DNA of 59,706 nucleotides, counting the filler. It is 4 parts of 4 records of this genome, joined end to end, with 100 filler letters (N's around TTAATTAATTAA, not from the genome) between each part and the next. Parts side by side here need not be neighbours in the genome. Positions count along the whole stretch, not along the records: positions 26,259 to 52,095 come from DRR723986_8315; 3 more parts are not named here. One strand, 5' to 3'. Below, piece by piece: positions 13,358-52,195 of this stretch. The translations under genes and the position numbers were made by a program. The notes under the pieces were generated by a model. It did not search any database. It was not told the origin of the DNA and was given only the letters and a program-made list of their open reading frames with translations. Position 1 is the stretch's first letter. Each line of letters begins with the position of its first letter.

Positions 13358-13457
13358 NNNNNNNNNNNNNNNNNNNNNNNNNNNNNNNNNNNNNNNNNNN
13401 NTTAATTAATTAANNNNNNNNNNNNNNNNNNNNNNNNNNNNNNNNNNNNNNNNNNNN
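13358..13457. other. Artificial contig spacer
   Basis: N-run / TTAATTAATTAA (stops in six frames) / N-run, 100 bp; genes truncated on both sides. Confidence 0.98.
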
Positions 13458-26158: not shown

Positions 26159-26258
26159 NNNNNNNNNNNNNNNNNNNNNNNNNNNNNNNNNNNNNNNNNN
26201 NNTTAATTAATTAANNNNNNNNNNNNNNNNNNNNNNNNNNNNNNNNNNNNNNNNNNNN
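26159..26258. other. Artificial contig spacer
   Basis: N-run / TTAATTAATTAA / N-run. Confidence 0.98.
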
Positions 26259-26975: not shown

Positions 26976-29516
26976 TTGAACCTGGAAGTCGGCCTACACT
27001 TCTCGGTCGAGACGACGGATGGTAAAACAAGGCCTTTTCTACGAGCGCTCGCGTTGTCATACACGCCAATTCACCACCGAACTCTTCAAGTTGGGTGGGC
27101 TATTCTCTCTGCATTGACTTTCTTCTGTGAGACGGATTTAGCGGCGCAGGAGCGTCTACTAGATCATTTCCCTGCAGCGGCCGCCTCTGGTTGCATGACG
27201 TGCCATGCAGAAATCGAACCGATCCGCGACATCGGTTCCGAAATGCTTACGCAAATCATGGAACGGGGCTCTGAATTGGGAGATCCAGCAGGTTGTATAG
27301 TCTGCCACAACGGCGATCCGAATGAAAAGCTTGATAAAACGATCGCTCACGGCGGCAACGACTTCTATGCCGATCCCGGCAGCCCGTGGATCAACGACAC
27401 CACGTGCGGCCAATGCCACAAGGAGCAAGTTGGCACGCAGTGGCAAAGCCTGATGATGACCGAGGCAGGCAAGATCCAAGGCACCTGCTGGTCATTCGGT
27501 GCACTCACCGGTTATGAACATAAGTACGCAAACTATGCCGTTGAAAACCCCAAAGACCCTTTGGTTCGGCTTGGGACGGCAACGTACCGCAAATACATGG
27601 AACGCCTGAAGGAACTCGAACCGAACGTCTTCGTCGACTCCCACGAAGCGCTTCCGGACGCCGTTGGCTTTGACGAACTGGAAAAACTAGAGGAATCACC
27701 GGAGCTCGCCGCTTTCACTTACATACGCCAAGAGTGCAATCGCTGCCACCATGCGGTCAAGGGGCGATCTCGGAGAGGCGATTTTCGCGGCATGGGCTGT
27801 TCAAGCTGCCATGTGCCCTACAGCAACGAAGGTCTTTATGAAGGCCATGATTCGTCCATTCCCAAAGACACTCCTTCGCATCCACTAACGCACCAAATCC
27901 AGGGCACGCGTGACGCAACCGTAACTGTCAATGAAGTAAGCTACCACGGACTGCCCGCTGAAACATGTACTACTTGCCACAATCGTGGCAAGAGGATTGG
28001 TGTCTCGTTTCAGGGGCTGATGGAGTCTCCCTATGCATCGCCGTTCACCGAAGATGGCGACGAACAACCGGGACTGCACACCAAACACTATGTCGCGATG
28101 GAGCAAGACATCCATTATCAAAAGGGAATGAAGTGCCAGGACTGCCACACGTCGATTGACGTTCACGGAGATGGCTTCTTGGCACCAACAAATCTTGCAG
28201 CCGTCCAGATCGAATGTTCCGACTGCCATGGAACTCCAGATGCATTTCCCTGGGAGTTACCAATTGGGTTCATGGATGAGTTTTCGATGTCGTCGGCCGA
28301 GGGTAAAGCGAGAGGCGTGACTGACAAACAGTTGCCACACACCTGGGCGGGCATGAGCTACGACAGTCGCGACGGCTACTTGCTGACAGCTAGGGGCAAC
28401 CCGTATGAGAATGTCGTGCGCGATGGCGACGAAGTTATCGTGCATACTGCCGAAGGAAAGGACATTCGCCTGAAACCACTCAAGAAACTGGCTGACGAGA
28501 ACGCAATCAGCCAGCGTGGTTTAGTTTCAATGAAGAGCATCTCGAAGCACCTGGACCGCATGGAATGCTACACATGCCATGCAAGCTGGACGCCGCAGTG
28601 TTACGGATGCCATGTGAAGATTGACTACAGCCAAAAGGACCGTTGTCCTGAGATAAACGAATCCCGCCAGGGCTTTGACTGGGTCGCGGCGGGAAGAAAG
28701 CATTCCGATCCAGATCACCGGACTGATTCAGGAGAATCGGCTTACGATTTGATGATCCCCGGAAAGGTCACCGAGCAGCGCAGCTACCTGCGATGGGAAG
28801 AACCGATGATGGGCGTCAATGGAGAAGGGCGTGTAACGCCACTCGCGCCAGGCTGCCAACCTTCGGTAACAATCATTGGAGCAAACGGCAAACCTATTCT
28901 GACAAATCACATTTTCAAGACGCCAGCCGGTCTCGAAAACAGTTCAACCGGTCAGCTTGCGATCGATATGAGCCCTGTCCAACCACATACGATGACCAAG
29001 AATGCCCGCACTTGCGAATCATGTCACGCAAGCGACAAAGCACTCGGACTAGGCATCGATGGACCGAGACCGTGGAATGAAACACATTACGTTGACCTGG
29101 AGACAACCGACGGTACAGTGCTTTCCAAGCAAGCCCAACCTCAGATGAATGCGATTGAGAACCTAAATCACGATTGGTCTCAAATTGTCGATCGTGACGG
29201 TAACCAGCTAGCAACTGTCGGTCACCACTGGAAGCTTTCAAGGGCACTGAACAAGCAGGAGATTGAGCACATGCAGCGTGATGGCACTTGCATTGCATGT
29301 CACCAAGAGATCCCTGAAAACTCAGCCGCAATCAACCTGTTGCACCACGTTGCCAAGTATACCGGCGGGCTGCCAAAGACGAACGAAGAACATTCAAGCT
29401 TGGTTCACAAAATTGTCTTAACGAGCGCTTGGCTTCAAGTGCTGGGCCCTGTTGTTGCGCTTTGTGCGTGTTTCGCAGCAGGACGCTACGTATGGCGACG
29501 CCGCAAGAAACGCTAG
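26976..29516 (+). CDS. Membrane-anchored multiheme cytochrome c (12 CxxCH); start uncertain
   Basis: CMTCH, CIVCH, CGQCH, CNRCH, CSSCH, CTTCH, CQDCH, CSDCH, CYTCH, CYGCH, CESCH, CIACH; C-terminal TM helix + WRRRKKR. Confidence 0.88.
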   Translation: MNLEVGLHFSVETTDGKTRPFLRALALSYTPIHHRTLQVGWAILSALTFFCETDLAAQERLLDHFPAAAASGCMTCHAEIEPIRDIGSEMLTQIMERGSELGDPAGCIVCHNGDPNEKLDKTIAHGGNDFYADPGSPWINDTTCGQCHKEQVGTQWQSLMMTEAGKIQGTCWSFGALTGYEHKYANYAVENPKDPLVRLGTATYRKYMERLKELEPNVFVDSHEALPDAVGFDELEKLEESPELAAFTYIRQECNRCHHAVKGRSRRGDFRGMGCSSCHVPYSNEGLYEGHDSSIPKDTPSHPLTHQIQGTRDATVTVNEVSYHGLPAETCTTCHNRGKRIGVSFQGLMESPYASPFTEDGDEQPGLHTKHYVAMEQDIHYQKGMKCQDCHTSIDVHGDGFLAPTNLAAVQIECSDCHGTPDAFPWELPIGFMDEFSMSSAEGKARGVTDKQLPHTWAGMSYDSRDGYLLTARGNPYENVVRDGDEVIVHTAEGKDIRLKPLKKLADENAISQRGLVSMKSISKHLDRMECYTCHASWTPQCYGCHVKIDYSQKDRCPEINESRQGFDWVAAGRKHSDPDHRTDSGESAYDLMIPGKVTEQRSYLRWEEPMMGVNGEGRVTPLAPGCQPSVTIIGANGKPILTNHIFKTPAGLENSSTGQLAIDMSPVQPHTMTKNARTCESCHASDKALGLGIDGPRPWNETHYVDLETTDGTVLSKQAQPQMNAIENLNHDWSQIVDRDGNQLATVGHHWKLSRALNKQEIEHMQRDGTCIACHQEIPENSAAINLLHHVAKYTGGLPKTNEEHSSLVHKIVLTSAWLQVLGPVVALCACFAAGRYVWRRRKKR

Positions 29517-30335: not shown

Positions 30336-30507
30336 GTGCCTGCCTTTTCACTCAATTAGCGTTTCAAAATTTTTTGCGCGACCTATCGTCGCTCAAAACG
30401 TGTCACTTGGGCAGTAGGACACGCTCCGGGCCGGCGTGGGTGAATGGATTGAATCAGAAAACCCAAATTTTCTAGTCACTTTGGGTATTGCAGCAGCCGA
30501 GAATTAA

Positions 30508-30521
30508 AGTACAACTGTACT
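30508..30521. promoter_or_regulatory. BlaI/MecI/CopY-type operator
   Basis: Perfect inverted repeat AGTACA-AC-TGTACT (TACA-N2-TGTA core) 70 bp upstream of the blaI-like gene. Confidence 0.75.
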
Positions 30522-30591
30522 CAACGTAAGTGAGCTTGTACTTAGAAGTTCAATCTTGGAACGCGATTGCTAGCGTAAAGGCTCGGCCCGC

Positions 30592-30990
30592 ATGGAAAAC
30601 AGACCTTCACTGTCGAGAGGCGAAACGCAGGTGCTTAAAGCACTGTGGCGTCTCGAGAAAGGTTCGGTAGGCGAGATTCACGCCGCGGTGCCAGAGCAAT
30701 TGGAGATGGATTACAGCACGGTTCAAACTTACGTACGACGTTTGACTGCCAAAGGTTACGTATCGGCCCAAAGAATTGGCCGCAATAAAATCTACCGACC
30801 CGCAGTCCGCAAGAATCAGGTAATTGGCGAGGCGGTTGAAGACTTCCTTGACCACATGTTCGATGGCAAATTACTCCCCATGGTTCGCCATCTCGTTGAC
30901 TCGCGAGACGTTTCGCCTGAAGAGATTCAGGATCTAATGAAAATTGTTGAGCGTCTGCGGCGCGAGAAGGGGAGTGATGATGGGAAGTAG
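30592..30990 (+). CDS. BlaI/MecI/CopY-family repressor
   Basis: LSRGETQVLKALW, YSTVQTYVRRL..KG, FLDHMFDG; coupled to M56 gene. Confidence 0.92.
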   Translation: MENRPSLSRGETQVLKALWRLEKGSVGEIHAAVPEQLEMDYSTVQTYVRRLTAKGYVSAQRIGRNKIYRPAVRKNQVIGEAVEDFLDHMFDGKLLPMVRHLVDSRDVSPEEIQDLMKIVERLRREKGSDDGK

Positions 30991-32872
30991 TCAAGCTCTC
31001 CAGTTTGCGACCGCTCACCTACTGCAGCTTAGCGTTGTCATCGTGATTGCGGCCGTTGTCGTTCGCTTTGCAAGTCGTCGTTTGCCTCACCTGGCATTCC
31101 TGATTTGTATGCTTGCACTAGCAAAATGCGTGGTGCCGCCGGTGATTACAAGTCCCGCGGGACTGTTCACCCTTCACAACGCATTGTCGTTTTCGCCGCA
31201 GATGGATGTTCTCGACAGCGAGACCTTCCTGCAGCTCAAGCAGACCATGGGTGACGATTCCGCTGCTGCTAGTGCGCAGCCGCCGCTTTGGGGTTTCCCA
31301 ACATGGGGAGTGGTAACCCTGGCCCTTTGGTCGATCGGATCGCTGTTCCTGCTGTGCTATGCAGCGTGGAAGTACCGCAAAGTGACCAATATCATCGCTC
31401 GCTGCACACCGGCATGCCGTTCGTTTCGTGTCGAAACAGATCGACTCGCTGCCCAACTTGGACTCAAGCGGCGTGTCCGCGTCATGGTCTCGGCAGAGAA
31501 TTACGGCCCAGCGTGTGTAGGCGTGCTGCGACCGACGCTTGTACTGCCGCAAACCCTAGTAGCAAACTGGTCGAATCGCCTGCTCACGCCCGTTCTTGCA
31601 CACGAACTCGTGCATGCACGACGTGGTGATGCAGCCTGGGGTTATCTGCAGTTTATCGCTCAAATCATTTGCTGGTTTCATCCACTTGTATGGTGGCTTG
31701 GCCGTCACGCTCAGATTCTGTGCGAACGTTGCTGCGACCAAGAGGTACTCTCCTCTTTGAAGGTTGCACCAGCGGATTACGCCGAGAGCTTGGTGCGTGT
31801 TCTTGAAATGCAGAGCGTCTGCAAGCCGCTTCCGGTGGGATCTGGAATGTCGCCCGTTGAAATCACTGAACAGCGAATTCACCGATTGTCACAACCTGCC
31901 TCCACTCGGCGGACACATCGAGTCACCTGGGCCCTGGCACTCCTGTCAGCCGCACTTGTACTGCCGGGAATGCGGTGGGCGACCAATCCAATGTTTGAAG
32001 TCCAGATGGACCTCCAAGCGAACGATTACTCGCTACGCGTCAACGCGGCGATCGAACACGAGGACTGGAAGCGAGCAATTGCTCTGCTACGCCCTCTTGT
32101 TGAGAAGGACCCGCAAAACGCTGATGCCCTTTTCTTCCTGGGATATGCACTTCATGCGGAAGGAAGAATCGATGAAGCCATTGGTTATCACAGGCTGGCT
32201 GCAAAGTTTAAGTCTTTAAAGCCAATTGCGACCTACAACTTGGCGTGTGCTCTTGCGATCAAGGGCGACGAAGCTGAAGCGCTGGCGACGTTGAAGGGCT
32301 CCATTGCTGGCGGTTTTATCCCGCGAGACATGAACCTGACGGACGATCCTGACCTCAAGTCATTGTTCCGTTGTCCAGAATTTGCCGTGCTGAACGCCAG
32401 CGTGATCATGCAACGCATTACACCTGACATTGTCGAAAAGATTGACACGCGGACCGTTCGCAAATTGCTCAAGCTTCCTCCAGCTTTGCCTGCGTCTAGC
32501 GATTCCGCGGCGACCTTCAGGCCGGCGATGGCGAAACGTGCCGATGGTCCATCAGTGGCGACGACAACAGAGGTAACCCAAAATAGTCGTCGCCGAATAA
32601 TCGATTCACGCTACGTTACGAAATTACCTGAGAAGACTATCGCTGTTTTGTACCTTTCCCCAAGCAAAGACGACGTTTGCCTTGAGGCCAGGTTGAGGAC
32701 GCCAGGCGTTCCGACTGTTGATGCAGAAGTAAGAATGCAGCCTAAGGAAAACGGTTGTATTGAACAGACAATCGAATGCAAGATCGAGAGCTCGGGGCAC
32801 TGCTTCACTCGATCGATGCTGATTTCTCCCGAAGCTTTGCTACCTGTAGAGGGGGCATGGCAGACGATGTAG
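30977..32872 (+). CDS. BlaR1-like M56 metallopeptidase with TPR region
   Basis: N-terminal TM helices, HELVH zinc motif, WFHPLVW, ERCCD; then TPR (ALFFLGYALH, YNLACALA). Confidence 0.88.
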   Translation: MMGSSQALQFATAHLLQLSVVIVIAAVVVRFASRRLPHLAFLICMLALAKCVVPPVITSPAGLFTLHNALSFSPQMDVLDSETFLQLKQTMGDDSAAASAQPPLWGFPTWGVVTLALWSIGSLFLLCYAAWKYRKVTNIIARCTPACRSFRVETDRLAAQLGLKRRVRVMVSAENYGPACVGVLRPTLVLPQTLVANWSNRLLTPVLAHELVHARRGDAAWGYLQFIAQIICWFHPLVWWLGRHAQILCERCCDQEVLSSLKVAPADYAESLVRVLEMQSVCKPLPVGSGMSPVEITEQRIHRLSQPASTRRTHRVTWALALLSAALVLPGMRWATNPMFEVQMDLQANDYSLRVNAAIEHEDWKRAIALLRPLVEKDPQNADALFFLGYALHAEGRIDEAIGYHRLAAKFKSLKPIATYNLACALAIKGDEAEALATLKGSIAGGFIPRDMNLTDDPDLKSLFRCPEFAVLNASVIMQRITPDIVEKIDTRTVRKLLKLPPALPASSDSAATFRPAMAKRADGPSVATTTEVTQNSRRRIIDSRYVTKLPEKTIAVLYLSPSKDDVCLEARLRTPGVPTVDAEVRMQPKENGCIEQTIECKIESSGHCFTRSMLISPEALLPVEGAWQTM

Positions 32873-32879
32873 ATGGCCT

Positions 32880-32901
32880 GGGAAAAGAACCACCTTTTCC
32901 C
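32880..32901 (+). terminator. Hairpin after the M56 gene (possible terminator)
   Basis: GGGAAAAG-N6-CTTTTCCC; weak T-tract. Confidence 0.4.
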
Positions 32902-32963
32902 GAGAACTATTTTCAATATTTACCTTACAACAACGAAACACCACTGTGCATGCGGGCAACATG

Positions 32964-32973
32964 TACATGTGTA
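32964..32973. promoter_or_regulatory. Second TACA-N2-TGTA (BlaI-type) box
   Basis: TACA-TG-TGTA, overlapping palindrome ACATGTACATGT, ending just before the structured RNA candidate. Confidence 0.5.
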
Positions 32974-32974
32974 T

Positions 32975-33175
32975 GGTGCAGGAAAGACAGCTAGTTTGGC
33001 TGAGTGCGTTTTGATTGGTGTTCCTTGCCCTTTTAGGAAACGCCAGTTGGACGCGAGAGAGACTTAGCCGGCGAAAAGCAGATGGTTGGTGACCCCAGCG
33101 GATCAGTCCTCGTGACCTCATGGACCGGTTCTCTGGATCAGTAAAAAGCATCTTCGAAGCTGTCGATCCTGCACC
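32975..33175 (+). ncRNA. Candidate ~200-nt structured ncRNA (three-way junction), family not recognised
   Basis: Ends pair 16/18 (GGTGCAGGAAAGACAGCT / AGCTGTCGATCCTGCACC); two long internal hairpins with many G-U pairs; followed by CTCTTTTTT. Confidence 0.65.
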
Positions 33176-33259
33176 CTCTTTTTTGCTTGCGGCGAACGCA
33201 GTGGGATGAATTACAGCCGCTGGTGGAATAACCTGCCTGCGTGCGGTTTCTATCTTGGC

Positions 33260-33688
33260 ATGAATATTTATGCCATTCTTGCAGACGTCGTCGTAGCGAT
33301 TCATCTCGCCTACGTAGGTTTTGTCGTTCTTGGATTGTTCGCGATCCTCATCGGTCGGCTGGCGGGCTGGCAATGGATTCGCAATCCCTGGTTTCGCTTT
33401 ATACACCTCGGCATGATAGGGATCGTGGTCGTGGAGGCGTTGTTGTCGATCACATGCCCATTGACGACACTTGAATTCTATCTCCGCAGTGAAGCTGGCC
33501 AAACGTTCAACGAAGGAAGCTTTGTAGGGCGACTGTCTCACAACATCCTGTTTTTCGATATTCCTCAGGAGCAATTTACGACTGCTTACTGTTTGTTTGG
33601 GGCCCTAGTTCTAGCAACTCTCCTGCTCGTCCCGCCGCGAATGCCAGCAATTCTTCGCCGACAATCTGCTGGCCACGACCCCGAATAG
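33260..33688 (+). CDS. DUF2784-like membrane protein
   Basis: LADVVVAIHLAYVGFVVLG, IHL, CPLTTLE..LR, GSFV. Confidence 0.8.
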   Translation: MNIYAILADVVVAIHLAYVGFVVLGLFAILIGRLAGWQWIRNPWFRFIHLGMIGIVVVEALLSITCPLTTLEFYLRSEAGQTFNEGSFVGRLSHNILFFDIPQEQFTTAYCLFGALVLATLLLVPPRMPAILRRQSAGHDPE

Positions 33689-33964: not shown

Positions 33965-36121
33965 ATGATTAAGCGAATAAACTTGTTCAGTGTCCTCGTC
34001 ACACTCGTGACCGGCCCGGTAGTGGTTCTTATCCCGACAATGAAAAACGTCAACGCGCAGGAGTCCAGTTTGACTGGCACATTGAGTTCAATCGACGCGG
34101 TAATTCAACCTTGGACAGGCCCATACGGAGGTGTCCCGCCTTGGAACAGAGTGAATGTCGCTGAATTCCCAGCAGCCTTTGAAGCGGCCATCAAGTTGTC
34201 TGAGGATGAGATTGCCGCAATCGCGCAGAGCGACGAAGCACCAACGTTTGAGAACACGATTGTAGCCTTAGAAGAAAGCGGGAAGGCCCTACGACGACTG
34301 GAAACGCTATTCGATGTTCACTCCTCGAACCTCAACGTCGGCCCGATGGCGGACATTGAGAAACAAGTTGTTCCCATGCTAACCGCCCACCAAGATGCGA
34401 TCATCCAAAATGCGGAACTGTTCGCTCGTATCGAGTCCGTGCACCAGGGTTCGCTCGACTCCCTCAGTAGTGCTGAGAAACGATTGGTTGATGACTATTA
34501 CAAGCGGTTTGTGCGTCAAGGTGCAAAACTGAGTGACGAGCAGAAGTCACGCCTTTCGAAAATCAACACACGCCTTGCAACCCTTTTCACCGAATTTAGC
34601 CAGAACGTTTTAGCCGACGAAGGTGGCTACGTAACTTGGATCGAGAACGAAAAGGAACTTGCCGGTCTGCCGCAAAGTATTGTTGCGGCCATGAAAGCGG
34701 CGGCAAAGTCGAAGGGGGAGCCTGACAAGTGGGCGATCACCAATACGCGTAGTTCAATGGATCCCTTTCTAACGTATTCAGAAAATCGGCCACTCCGCAA
34801 GCAAGTCTGGGACCGCTATTACAGTCGCGGTGACAATGGCGACGCGCGAGACAACAATACGATCATTGCCGAAATCCTCAGCCTGCGTGCCGCCCGAGCC
34901 GAATTGCTGGGCTACGAAACTCATGCTCACTGGCGTCTTGAACCTCAGATGGCCAAGACTCCTGATTCAGCCATGGATCTGATGATGAAGGTCTGGCCTA
35001 AAGCGGTTGCACGCGCCCAGGAAGAAGTTGCTGACATGCAGCGGATTGCGGACGCAGACAACATCACCATAGAACCTTGGGATTATCGGTTCTATGCCGA
35101 GAAGGTTCGAAAAGCGAAATATGACCTCGACTTTAACCTTGTCAAACCATACATGCAGATGGAAAAGCTGCGTGAGGGAATGATGTGGGCCGCCGGTCAA
35201 CTTTACGGGCTTCGATTCAAGCAAATCAACGACGTTCCCGTGTTCCACCCAGATGTTCGTGTGTGGCGGGTGGACGACGCAAGCGGGCAGCTTGTTGGCC
35301 TCTGGTATTTCGACCCCTACGCGCGTGAAGGCAAGCGTTCGGGGGCATGGATGACCGACTATCAAGCTCAGGAACGACTGGGCTCCCCTTCGATTGCGAT
35401 CGTTTCCAACAACTGCAATTTTGTCAAGGGCTCTGAAGGCAAGCCAACATTAATTTCCTGGGACGATGCAGACACACTGTTTCACGAGTTCGGCCACGCT
35501 CTCCACGGGTTGCTTTCGGATGTTAAGTATCCATCGCAGTCGGGGACGAACGTCGCGCGTGACTACGTAGAATTCCCGTCCCAGGTAAACGAACACTGGT
35601 TACCTACTCCGGAAGTCCTCAATCAGTTCGCGGTCCACTACCAGACCGGCGAACCATTGCCCGAGGAACTATTGGAGAAAATCAATCGAGCGGCCACATT
35701 CAACGAGGGCTTCGCAACGGTTGAGTACCTTGCCAGTGCGCTGGTCGACATGAAGCTCCACTTATCCAAACAGAAGACGATCGATCCTGACAAGTTCGAA
35801 CGCGAGACTCTGAAGGAACTTGGGATGCCGAAGGAAATTGTAATGCGGCACCGCACCCCACACTTTGCGCACATCTTCGCTGGTGATGGCTATTCGGCTG
35901 GCTACTACAGCTACCTTTGGTCGGACGCGTTGACCGCAGATGCCGCCGAAGCATTCGAAGAAGCTGGAAGCTTCTACGACAAAGGAGTTGCTGGCAAACT
36001 GTACAAAGAGATTATGTCGGTCGGCGACACAGTGGATCCCGCTGATGCATTTCGCGGGTTCCGCGGCCGAGATGTCGACACGAAAGCTCTCCTGCGAAAA
36101 CGAGGATTCCCAATCGAGTAA
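33965..36121 (+). CDS. dcp: M3 metallopeptidase (peptidyl-dipeptidase Dcp-like), exported
   Basis: PTFENT, KRSGAWM, FHEFGHALH, DYVEFPSQ, YSAGYYSYLW, FRGRD; signal-like N-terminus. Confidence 0.9.
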   Translation: MIKRINLFSVLVTLVTGPVVVLIPTMKNVNAQESSLTGTLSSIDAVIQPWTGPYGGVPPWNRVNVAEFPAAFEAAIKLSEDEIAAIAQSDEAPTFENTIVALEESGKALRRLETLFDVHSSNLNVGPMADIEKQVVPMLTAHQDAIIQNAELFARIESVHQGSLDSLSSAEKRLVDDYYKRFVRQGAKLSDEQKSRLSKINTRLATLFTEFSQNVLADEGGYVTWIENEKELAGLPQSIVAAMKAAAKSKGEPDKWAITNTRSSMDPFLTYSENRPLRKQVWDRYYSRGDNGDARDNNTIIAEILSLRAARAELLGYETHAHWRLEPQMAKTPDSAMDLMMKVWPKAVARAQEEVADMQRIADADNITIEPWDYRFYAEKVRKAKYDLDFNLVKPYMQMEKLREGMMWAAGQLYGLRFKQINDVPVFHPDVRVWRVDDASGQLVGLWYFDPYAREGKRSGAWMTDYQAQERLGSPSIAIVSNNCNFVKGSEGKPTLISWDDADTLFHEFGHALHGLLSDVKYPSQSGTNVARDYVEFPSQVNEHWLPTPEVLNQFAVHYQTGEPLPEELLEKINRAATFNEGFATVEYLASALVDMKLHLSKQKTIDPDKFERETLKELGMPKEIVMRHRTPHFAHIFAGDGYSAGYYSYLWSDALTADAAEAFEEAGSFYDKGVAGKLYKEIMSVGDTVDPADAFRGFRGRDVDTKALLRKRGFPIE

Positions 36122-52095: not shown

Positions 52096-52195
52096 NNNNN
52101 NNNNNNNNNNNNNNNNNNNNNNNNNNNNNNNNNNNNNNNTTAATTAATTAANNNNNNNNNNNNNNNNNNNNNNNNNNNNNNNNNNNNNNNNNNNN
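52096..52195. other. Artificial contig spacer
   Basis: N-run / TTAATTAATTAA / N-run. Confidence 0.98.

Follow-up and report, generated by a model that had tools for sequence, protein, structure and literature searches.

The closest described relatives of the locus reported here are the BlaI–BlaR1 and MecI–MecR1 systems of Staphylococcus and Bacillus, which likewise pair a PF03965 repressor with an HExxH protease of the M56 family and carry a TACA-N2-TGTA operator over the promoter. According to the available text of the CenIR paper (PMC13492132), a transpeptidase domain is found in ~6% of M56 proteins, and for the ~94% of M56/BlaR-like proteins without a beta-lactam sensor the outputs are mostly undescribed. 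CenIR of C. difficile (PMC13492132) and, in the accessible part of its preprint, PvmSR of P. aeruginosa (bioRxiv 10.64898/2026.08.03.742534) are examples that lack such a sensor. Here we analyze a 59,706-nt window made of several contigs joined by N spacers. One contig, whose closest relatives are planctomycete metagenome-assembled genomes labeled Pirellulaceae, Planctomycetaceae or Planctomycetales, carries a blaI repressor gene, a gene for an M56 protease with tetratricopeptide repeats (TPR) and, behind it, a predicted structured noncoding RNA (ncRNA) (Table 1). On sequence evidence the RNA is a new structured family attached to a noncanonical BlaI/M56 cassette. We further propose, at a probability of roughly 0.4, that it is a stable RNA acting in trans and derived from the 3′ end of a BlaI-repressed transcript.

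Judged by their domains, blaI and the M56-TPR gene are an ordinary noncanonical BlaIR pair, the blaI stop overlapping the M56 start. The window BlaI scores under the cut-offs of every curated BlaI, MecI and CopY equivalog model, and the M56-TPR protein reaches 81 bits on blaR1_generic against a cut-off of 400. Its HExxH residues (H208/E209/H212) are invariant in 23/23 aligned proteins, and its modeled fold (mean pLDDT 74) matches BlaR1 cryo-EM structures, the protease part resembling 8exq (E 1e-4). Unlike BlaR1, it has no penicillin-binding (transpeptidase) sensor domain and carries TPR repeats and a beta domain instead; most of its relatives also combine TPR repeats with a C-terminal beta domain, which is DUF1579-like in one of them (G432 M56 fragment, E 6.6e-5). 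This domain has diverged in the window protein (32440–32872) from the DFWVGxW-type form conserved in relatives, and is lost in G001. The subfamily is small, at about 25 close clusters, and its tree is largely unresolved. Unlike the classical systems, the cassette has a conserved ncRNA after the operon and no beta-lactamase in the neighborhood examined: as the initial annotation had noted, neither a beta-lactamase nor a penicillin-binding protein appears, at least among the six proteins near the locus covered by our Pfam scan. Given how few M56 proteins have a transpeptidase domain, this absence is unsurprising; the new part is the RNA.

The RNA accompanies the cassette across related genomes. 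A profile search of 81 relatives returned 12 M56-TPR loci, one of which (G217:C130) was excluded as untestable because its contig ends 96 nt past the M56 gene. In 10/11 testable loci the RNA lies directly 3′ of the M56-TPR gene, as it does in the window and at G432:C31. Three further copies came from a covariance-model search of 150 genomes, in which 10 additional matches, all stronger than the remainder, were inspected and 7 of them rejected, and the total including the window is 14 copies in 12 genomes, 12 of them 3′ of an M56 gene or its remnant. The spacing from M56 stop to RNA is 76–182 nt in the four loci measured. The flanks vary: the nine upstream regions include only two homologous pairs, and on the downstream side homology is confined to the 5 loci of 12 that have an M3 peptidase gene; the blaI-M56-RNA unit thus persists while its flanking genes change. 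Since the next gene is convergent in 5/12 loci (G001, G002, G362, G406 and G432:C31), the RNA is not the leader of a fixed gene.

The predicted RNA is 122–204 nt long across copies and comprises a closing stem (P1) and two arms (P2 and P3). P1 spans 7–27 bp, is variable in sequence, reaches at least 11 bp in 13/14 copies and usually leads into a tract of U or pyrimidines, the tail holding a mean of 6.8 T over 13 copies vs. 4.4 on the antisense side. Short variants have P2 capped by the loop GGUGAGAG, and long variants, including that of the window, have an extra helix inserted that turns GAGAGAG into a bulge. P3 ends as GUCC...URACCUC-RN-RGAC. Both loops, G[U/A]GAGAG (L2) and URACCUC (L3), are invariant in 13 aligned copies, L2 at positions G1, G3, A4, G5, A6 and G7 in 13/13; the G406 copy, with its degenerate L2, is left out of this alignment. 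Covariation supports the arms. In P3, 86.7% of cells are paired, 7/11 pairs show double changes, slid registers pair at most 52%, and 0/500 shuffles reach the score, in a control that ignores kinship and with two G384/G421 variants possibly out of register. P2 covaries as well (7 short copies), and we take the P2 and P3 counts as support and not as a significance test. The region 32970–33190 folds with z −4.5 on the + strand (0/200 shuffles match) and −2.3 on the − strand, and the sense z beats the antisense z clearly in long copies and in most copies overall. The GUGAGAG loop, or the 7-nt bulge 3′ of the variable helix, is presumably comparable to the UGAGA T-loop of TPP J3/2, of which it is reminiscent.

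Table 1. Features of the blaI-M56-RNA locus and its surroundings, in window coordinates
Feature	Position	Strand	Remarks
Contig carrying the locus	26259–52095		Window consists of several contigs joined by N spacers
Putative sigma70-type promoter of blaI operon	30488–30515	+	TTGCAG, 16 nt, TACAAC
Box 1, predicted BlaI operator AGTACA-AC-TGTACT, AGTACAACTGTACT	30508–30521	.	Overlaps −10 element
Degenerate second operator in blaI leader	30528–30543	.	7.2 bits, third best in contig
blaI, BlaI/MecI/CopY-family repressor	30592–30990	+	132 aa; PF03965, E 1.8e-29, over gathering score
M56 membrane metalloprotease with TPR repeats and degenerate C-terminal beta domain	30980–32872	+	PF05569, E 5e-35; TPR_16
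Weak alternative-sigma-like promoter candidate, CAA-N13-ACAACGAA	32908–32940	+	Lead only
Box 2, TACATGTGTA	32964–32973	.	Probably a chance match
Predicted structured ncRNA, three-way junction	32975–33175	+	z −5.8 sense vs. −2.8 antisense; 13 homologs; covariation
P1 closing stem	32975–32992 with ~33158–33175	+	Predicted fold
L2 loop or bulge GAGAGAG (GUGAGAG in short variants)	33055–33061	+	Invariant
P3 terminal hairpin GUCC-(UCG)UGACCUC(AU)-GGAC	33106–33125	+	Contains invariant URACCUC
U-rich tail directly 3′ of P1, likely 3′ end	33176–33184	+	9 T in 14 nt
DUF2784 gene	33260–33688	+	PF10861; local neighbor, outside conserved unit
M3 peptidase gene (Dcp-like)	33965–36121	+	PF01432; frequent, not constant, downstream neighbor

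Comparisons with known classes returned nothing on the RNA itself. Rfam 15 covariance models, among them those for 6S, SRP, RNase P, tmRNA, riboswitches, ribozymes and orphan motifs, gave no match to it at gathering thresholds (window) or at E up to 10 (32800–33300). In 12 homologous loci, with E allowed up to 5, they gave three weak matches, all lying off the RNA; ARAGORN gave 0 matches. Several roles were considered and rejected: a small open reading frame (ORF), NUG as a start codon and URA as a stop codon, since no frame is conserved; CsrA-type ANGGA sites, as the GGA is paired and is lost in two variants; and anti-Shine–Dalgarno pairing to local start regions, where GAGGT occurs in 2/30 readable regions (one more ran off its contig). 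The complement of the ACCUC loop is missing at the blaI/M56 start regions in most loci. Within the RNA, GAG of L2 could pair with CUC of L3, and an internal UG/CA mini-stem suits L3 equally well. In G362 (L199:5081–7108), the M56 frame extends across most of the RNA; its stop codon is the UGA within the invariant loop L3.

Box 1 is, by its conservation and position, a real autoregulatory operator of the blaI promoter. The pattern GTACANN(T/C)GTAC is kept in 11/11 readable blaI leaders at 20–26 bits, one of them with a single mismatch; this count leaves out G003, whose leader is cut by a contig end, and G406 and G432:C31, which have no blaI. Aligned blaI leaders share a TTG(C/A) hexamer ~16–17 nt 5′ of TACA, and the left half of box 1 occupies the −10 position behind it; a simple consensus promoter scan did not call this site (30488–30515) a promoter. 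Box 1 is also the top-scoring operator site of the contig, and several homologs have a second TGTACT/GTACT half-site recurring ~21 nt downstream in the leader. Matches to TACANNTGTA occur only twice in the window (30510 and 32964), against a shuffle mean of 0.11 with 0/100 shuffles reaching two. Across 10 genomes the 12-mer operator GTACANNTGTAC has 38 sites vs. 34 for the control, and 32 loci were read: 16 lie before blaI-type genes (by eye), 14 within ORFs and 2 in other intergenic positions. Because the sites are near the control count and fall mostly in blaI leaders or ORFs, autoregulation is seen without a wider regulon, and this survey found no other conserved BlaI target. Perfect 12-bp operators at L167 (G001:C388) and L181 (G362:C3), intergenic and not 5′ of blaI, are possible lineage-specific targets. 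A second blaI paralog group has the same GTACANNTGTAC operator (L162, L174, L175, L182, L189, L190 and L191), so that cross-talk between paralogs is possible; a genome-wide pattern search found no RNA copy at those loci.

These elements may be joined into one mechanism. BlaI would repress the sigma70-type promoter through box 1, and this promoter would drive blaI, the M56-TPR sensor-protease and then the 3′-terminal structured RNA, whose 3′ end would be the U tract that follows the long closing stem. By analogy with BlaR1, a signal sensed by the outward TPR/beta domain would lead the protease to cleave BlaI, the operon would be induced, and the RNA, presumably processed from the transcript, would accumulate as a stable product. 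It would then act in trans, its two invariant loops most likely serving to bind a protein and possibly making a GAG/CUC loop–loop contact, and a paralogous copy would have been recruited beside a kinase-linked extracytoplasmic function (ECF) sigma factor. We take the RNA as the candidate effector because it is the sole conserved non-sensor product and is kept where no gene follows. No TTG(C/A)-type promoter lies 5′ of any of the 14 RNA copies, and since no sigma70-like promoter precedes the RNA, cotranscription from box 1 is the most economical reading; if BlaI controls the RNA, box 1 with cotranscription is the most likely route.

Several observations weigh against this mechanism. G351 keeps blaI-M56 without the RNA and has a plain long hairpin there. 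The G432:C31 RNA is intact beside a fragmented M56 gene with blaI missing, and two copies (G432:C30 and G217:C399) are unlinked to blaI/M56, so BlaI control is not obligatory. Both unlinked copies are divergent from a pair encoding an ECF sigma factor and a Ser-Thr kinase, and lie upstream of homologous leucine-rich repeat (LRR)-like genes (39% identity) and DUF1559 genes. Sense and antisense folding z are equal or reversed in G406, G384 and G432:C31, the invariance of L2 and L3 leaves no covariation to back a loop–loop contact, and there are only 14 copies, all from one genus. No RNA target or partner was found in a search that covered local start regions. The initial annotation had held that RNA homologs unlinked to blaI/M56 and lacking the second operator-like site (box 2) would speak against its proposal, and these two copies are such homologs, a partial setback for it. 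Lying beside an ECF sigma factor and a kinase, they make the RNA more interesting, not less. A broader and more tentative proposal is that the RNA may be a new class of structured effector RNA and a portable output module: it would be the sole dedicated output of the BlaI/M56 proteolytic switch, would also have become connected to a kinase-activated ECF sigma factor, and would work through a GUGAGAG/URACCUC protein-binding surface.

The genes, both boxes and the folded RNA are all in the sequence where the initial annotation had placed them, but the wiring it drew from box 2 does not hold up. It had proposed box 2 as a possible second BlaI site, with the RNA and/or DUF2784 as the possible output, and had allowed that the core could be a chance occurrence. 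The exact 8-bp core does lie 1 nt 5′ of P1, chance would seldom produce even one such match in the window, and the weak promoter candidate at 32908–32940 would be ~25 nt upstream of the box. Against this, box 2 has three flank mismatches and scores 2.3 bits on the family operator matrix vs. 20–26 for true operators; in the 81% identical G003 ortholog its position reads TTCTTGTGTA and scores −10.8; and the exact core occurs upstream of 1/14 RNA copies, being absent 5′ of the 13 others. For CopY, the accessible text of PMC7253601 describes a 10-bp core as necessary, not sufficient. Box 2 is probably a chance match. DUF2784 follows the RNA in only 2/12 M56-linked loci (the window and G003), which speaks against it as a general output, and direct repression of the RNA or DUF2784 by BlaI via box 2 is very improbable. 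Of the co-conservation of blaI, M56, box and RNA that the annotation had suggested checking, the blaI-M56-RNA part stands, in 10/11 testable loci, and the box 2 part is not supported.

The main rival to BlaI control through box 1 treats the RNA as a separate gene, transcribed from an alternative-sigma promoter of its own, traveling with signaling cassettes and under no direct control by BlaI. We consider this unlikely, albeit the most credible of the competing accounts. It would explain the intact G432:C31 copy beside a decayed cassette without blaI and the two copies divergent from ECF/kinase genes. A candidate motif exists: GCAACAA-N13-GYAACGAAT, which resembles an alternative-sigma promoter, lies 5′ of 13/16 unannotated LRR-like membrane protein genes of the genus (L270–L282; homologs of P0121) and is absent from the two RNA-bearing LRR copies and from L269. 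Built from those 13/16 leaders, the motif scores 13.8 bits 5′ of the G217 copy, and its best sites lie 167–192 nt 5′ of URACCUC in 10/14 copies. The window candidate at 32908 ranks 4 of 51,608 contig positions; its score, however, is 3.1 bits, and scores upstream of the RNA are in general far under the 32–42 bits of the training sites and negative in 9/14 copies, with the two ECF-linked copies lowest or nearly so (−11.1 and −8.0). A relaxed motif, loosened after the site had been seen, shows no clear enrichment (60 vs. 49 for the control). Less likely again is a cis-acting element that ends the blaI-M56 mRNA, as a terminator combined with a stabilizer or protein-docking domain that tunes mRNA lifetime or localization. 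The position at the operon end, P1 with its U or pyrimidine tract, the plain long hairpin of G351 at the same place and the M56 read-through into the RNA in G362 all fit such an element, but the RNA is retained beside a broken M56 gene, and neither ECF-linked copy is preceded by a gene in its own orientation.

A riboswitch-like attenuator of the downstream gene is improbable, be its target the M3 peptidase, alone or together with DUF2784, or else the LRR and DUF1559 genes. A co-oriented M3 peptidase gene starts <2.5 kb downstream in 5/12 M56-linked loci, homologous LRR genes follow both ECF-linked copies, and a three-way junction with a T-loop-like GUGAGAG resembles a trait of several aptamers. 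However, a riboswitch would be expected 5′ of a coherent gene set; here the next gene is convergent in 5/12 loci, 4 of which have conserved loops, and the other downstream genes are unrelated between contexts. In addition, 14/16 LRR loci have no RNA, a sequence-variable P1 of 7–27 bp is long for a switching aptamer, and no Rfam riboswitch matched at E up to 5–10. Least credible of all is that the element is nonfunctional or a remnant at the DNA level, such as a repetitive extragenic palindromic (REP) or miniature inverted-repeat transposable element-like repeat, or else a small coding frame. Its long terminal stems and an L3 triplet that in every case reads as a stop, either UGA or UAA, point that way, but each genome has just 1–2 copies and these sit at fixed positions, the terminal sequences are not conserved, G-U pairs and compensatory changes occur, and over the 14 copies no frame, length or start is conserved on either side of the L3 triplet.

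The RNA has a narrow range. The motif is found in 10/121 relatives, with 0 matches in controls, and in 4/401 family genomes, all within one Pirellulaceae genus of 49 genomes, unlike the one-copy-per-genome pattern of a 6S-like RNA. The first strict pattern had given 4/401 genomes vs. 10 control matches, 2 of the 4 being real. In a marker tree of 40 genus genomes made by a quick method, the genomes with the RNA occur on several separate branches, a pattern consistent with an ancestral RNA that was later lost in places, or with transfer. Outside the genus, phage records gave no match to the RNA region and plasmids one 25-nt match that we ascribe to chance. In a viral pattern scan 80 loci were read, none with a closing stem, and further viral scans gave either no match, 3 without the conserved fold, or 2 inside a 904-aa frame. 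A metagenome scan gave 19 matches, none with a GAGAG loop or a blaI/M56/DUF2784 neighbor. In 331 genomes sampled across the phylum there were 7 other matches vs. 2 controls; a script placed 6 of them within long ORFs, the remaining one is at the edge of an ORF, and none has the fold. The M56-TPR profile in an order sample of 141 genomes gave 1 new M56-only match with no RNA at the locus. We ascribe the matches from the phylum, order, viral and metagenome searches to chance. Diverged homologs could escape these searches, and many genomes are incomplete. Related metagenome contigs (L136, L138, L146 and L148) carry an apparently intergenic GTCCTCRTGACCTCAGGAC hairpin without a GAGAG loop, probably unrelated to the RNA. 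Two cassettes appear to be decaying, at L194:4129–6079 (G406) and L234:4556–5609 (G432:C31), each with blaI absent and M56 split. Of their RNAs, that of G432 is intact, whereas that of G406 is degenerate and preceded by a long REP-like inverted repeat.

LRR-like genes occur in 10/11 RNA-bearing genomes vs. 4/38 others (p 1e-6), which is a lead only, since it is confounded by kinship and incomplete genomes. Close to the ECF start, the two ECF loci (L233:4700–4800 and L235:2050–2135) share GCATGTCACACTTT-N6-GACTTGCGATTA, which may be an autoregulatory promoter on the opposite strand. Around the cassette in the window, a multiheme c-type cytochrome gene (846 aa, 26976–29516) lies just upstream and is convergent with a PhzF-like gene. 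Spacers of the form N44+12+N44 at 13358–13457, 26159–26258 and 52096–52195 link unrelated contigs, and the genes left of 26159 are apparently another organism's.

The sole conserved non-sensor product of the cassette is a previously undescribed structured RNA, which offers a directly testable candidate output. The second location of this RNA, by a kinase-linked ECF sigma factor, suggests that RNA outputs move between signaling systems, and, were the portable-module proposal true, two unrelated envelope-signaling systems would have one RNA output in common; restriction to one genus limits general importance for now. Kinase-associated ECF groups are already known, as the accessible text of PMC7826278 reports. 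The RNA would add a motif from a phylum that is absent from the main text of two genome surveys by the Breaker laboratory (PMC11109978 and PMC8632094), supplements to which might list it; in the accessible text of PMC2864571, Rhodopirellula-1 is the sole motif named for the phylum. We found no account of this RNA, or of any BlaI/M56-linked ncRNA, in the open-access literature.

Two kinds of RNA invite comparison. The T-loop three-way-junction RNAs (TPP, FMN and T-box) are presumably similar in the GUGAGAG loop or 7-nt bulge, whereas the cassette RNA has no Rfam match, a 3′ position, a long P1 and an unrelated second arm. Closer in arrangement is PhoS of Bacillus, which the text available for PMC11522486 describes as a small RNA that ends a signaling operon, in the 3′ untranslated region of phoPR, and is controlled by that same system; a location at the 3′ end of a regulator operon is shared by 12/14 copies of our RNA. 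PhoS, however, is 66 nt long and pairs with the phoP ribosome-binding site, whereas the cassette RNA is 120–200 nt long and predicted to be heavily paired. Among the regulators themselves, the main text of the CenIR paper has 0 occurrences of "sRNA" or "noncoding" and places the most induced target 215 bp downstream of cenIR (PMC13492132). In the accessible texts on CenIR and PvmSR, the described outputs are protein genes, and an RNA output would be what sets the window cassette apart.

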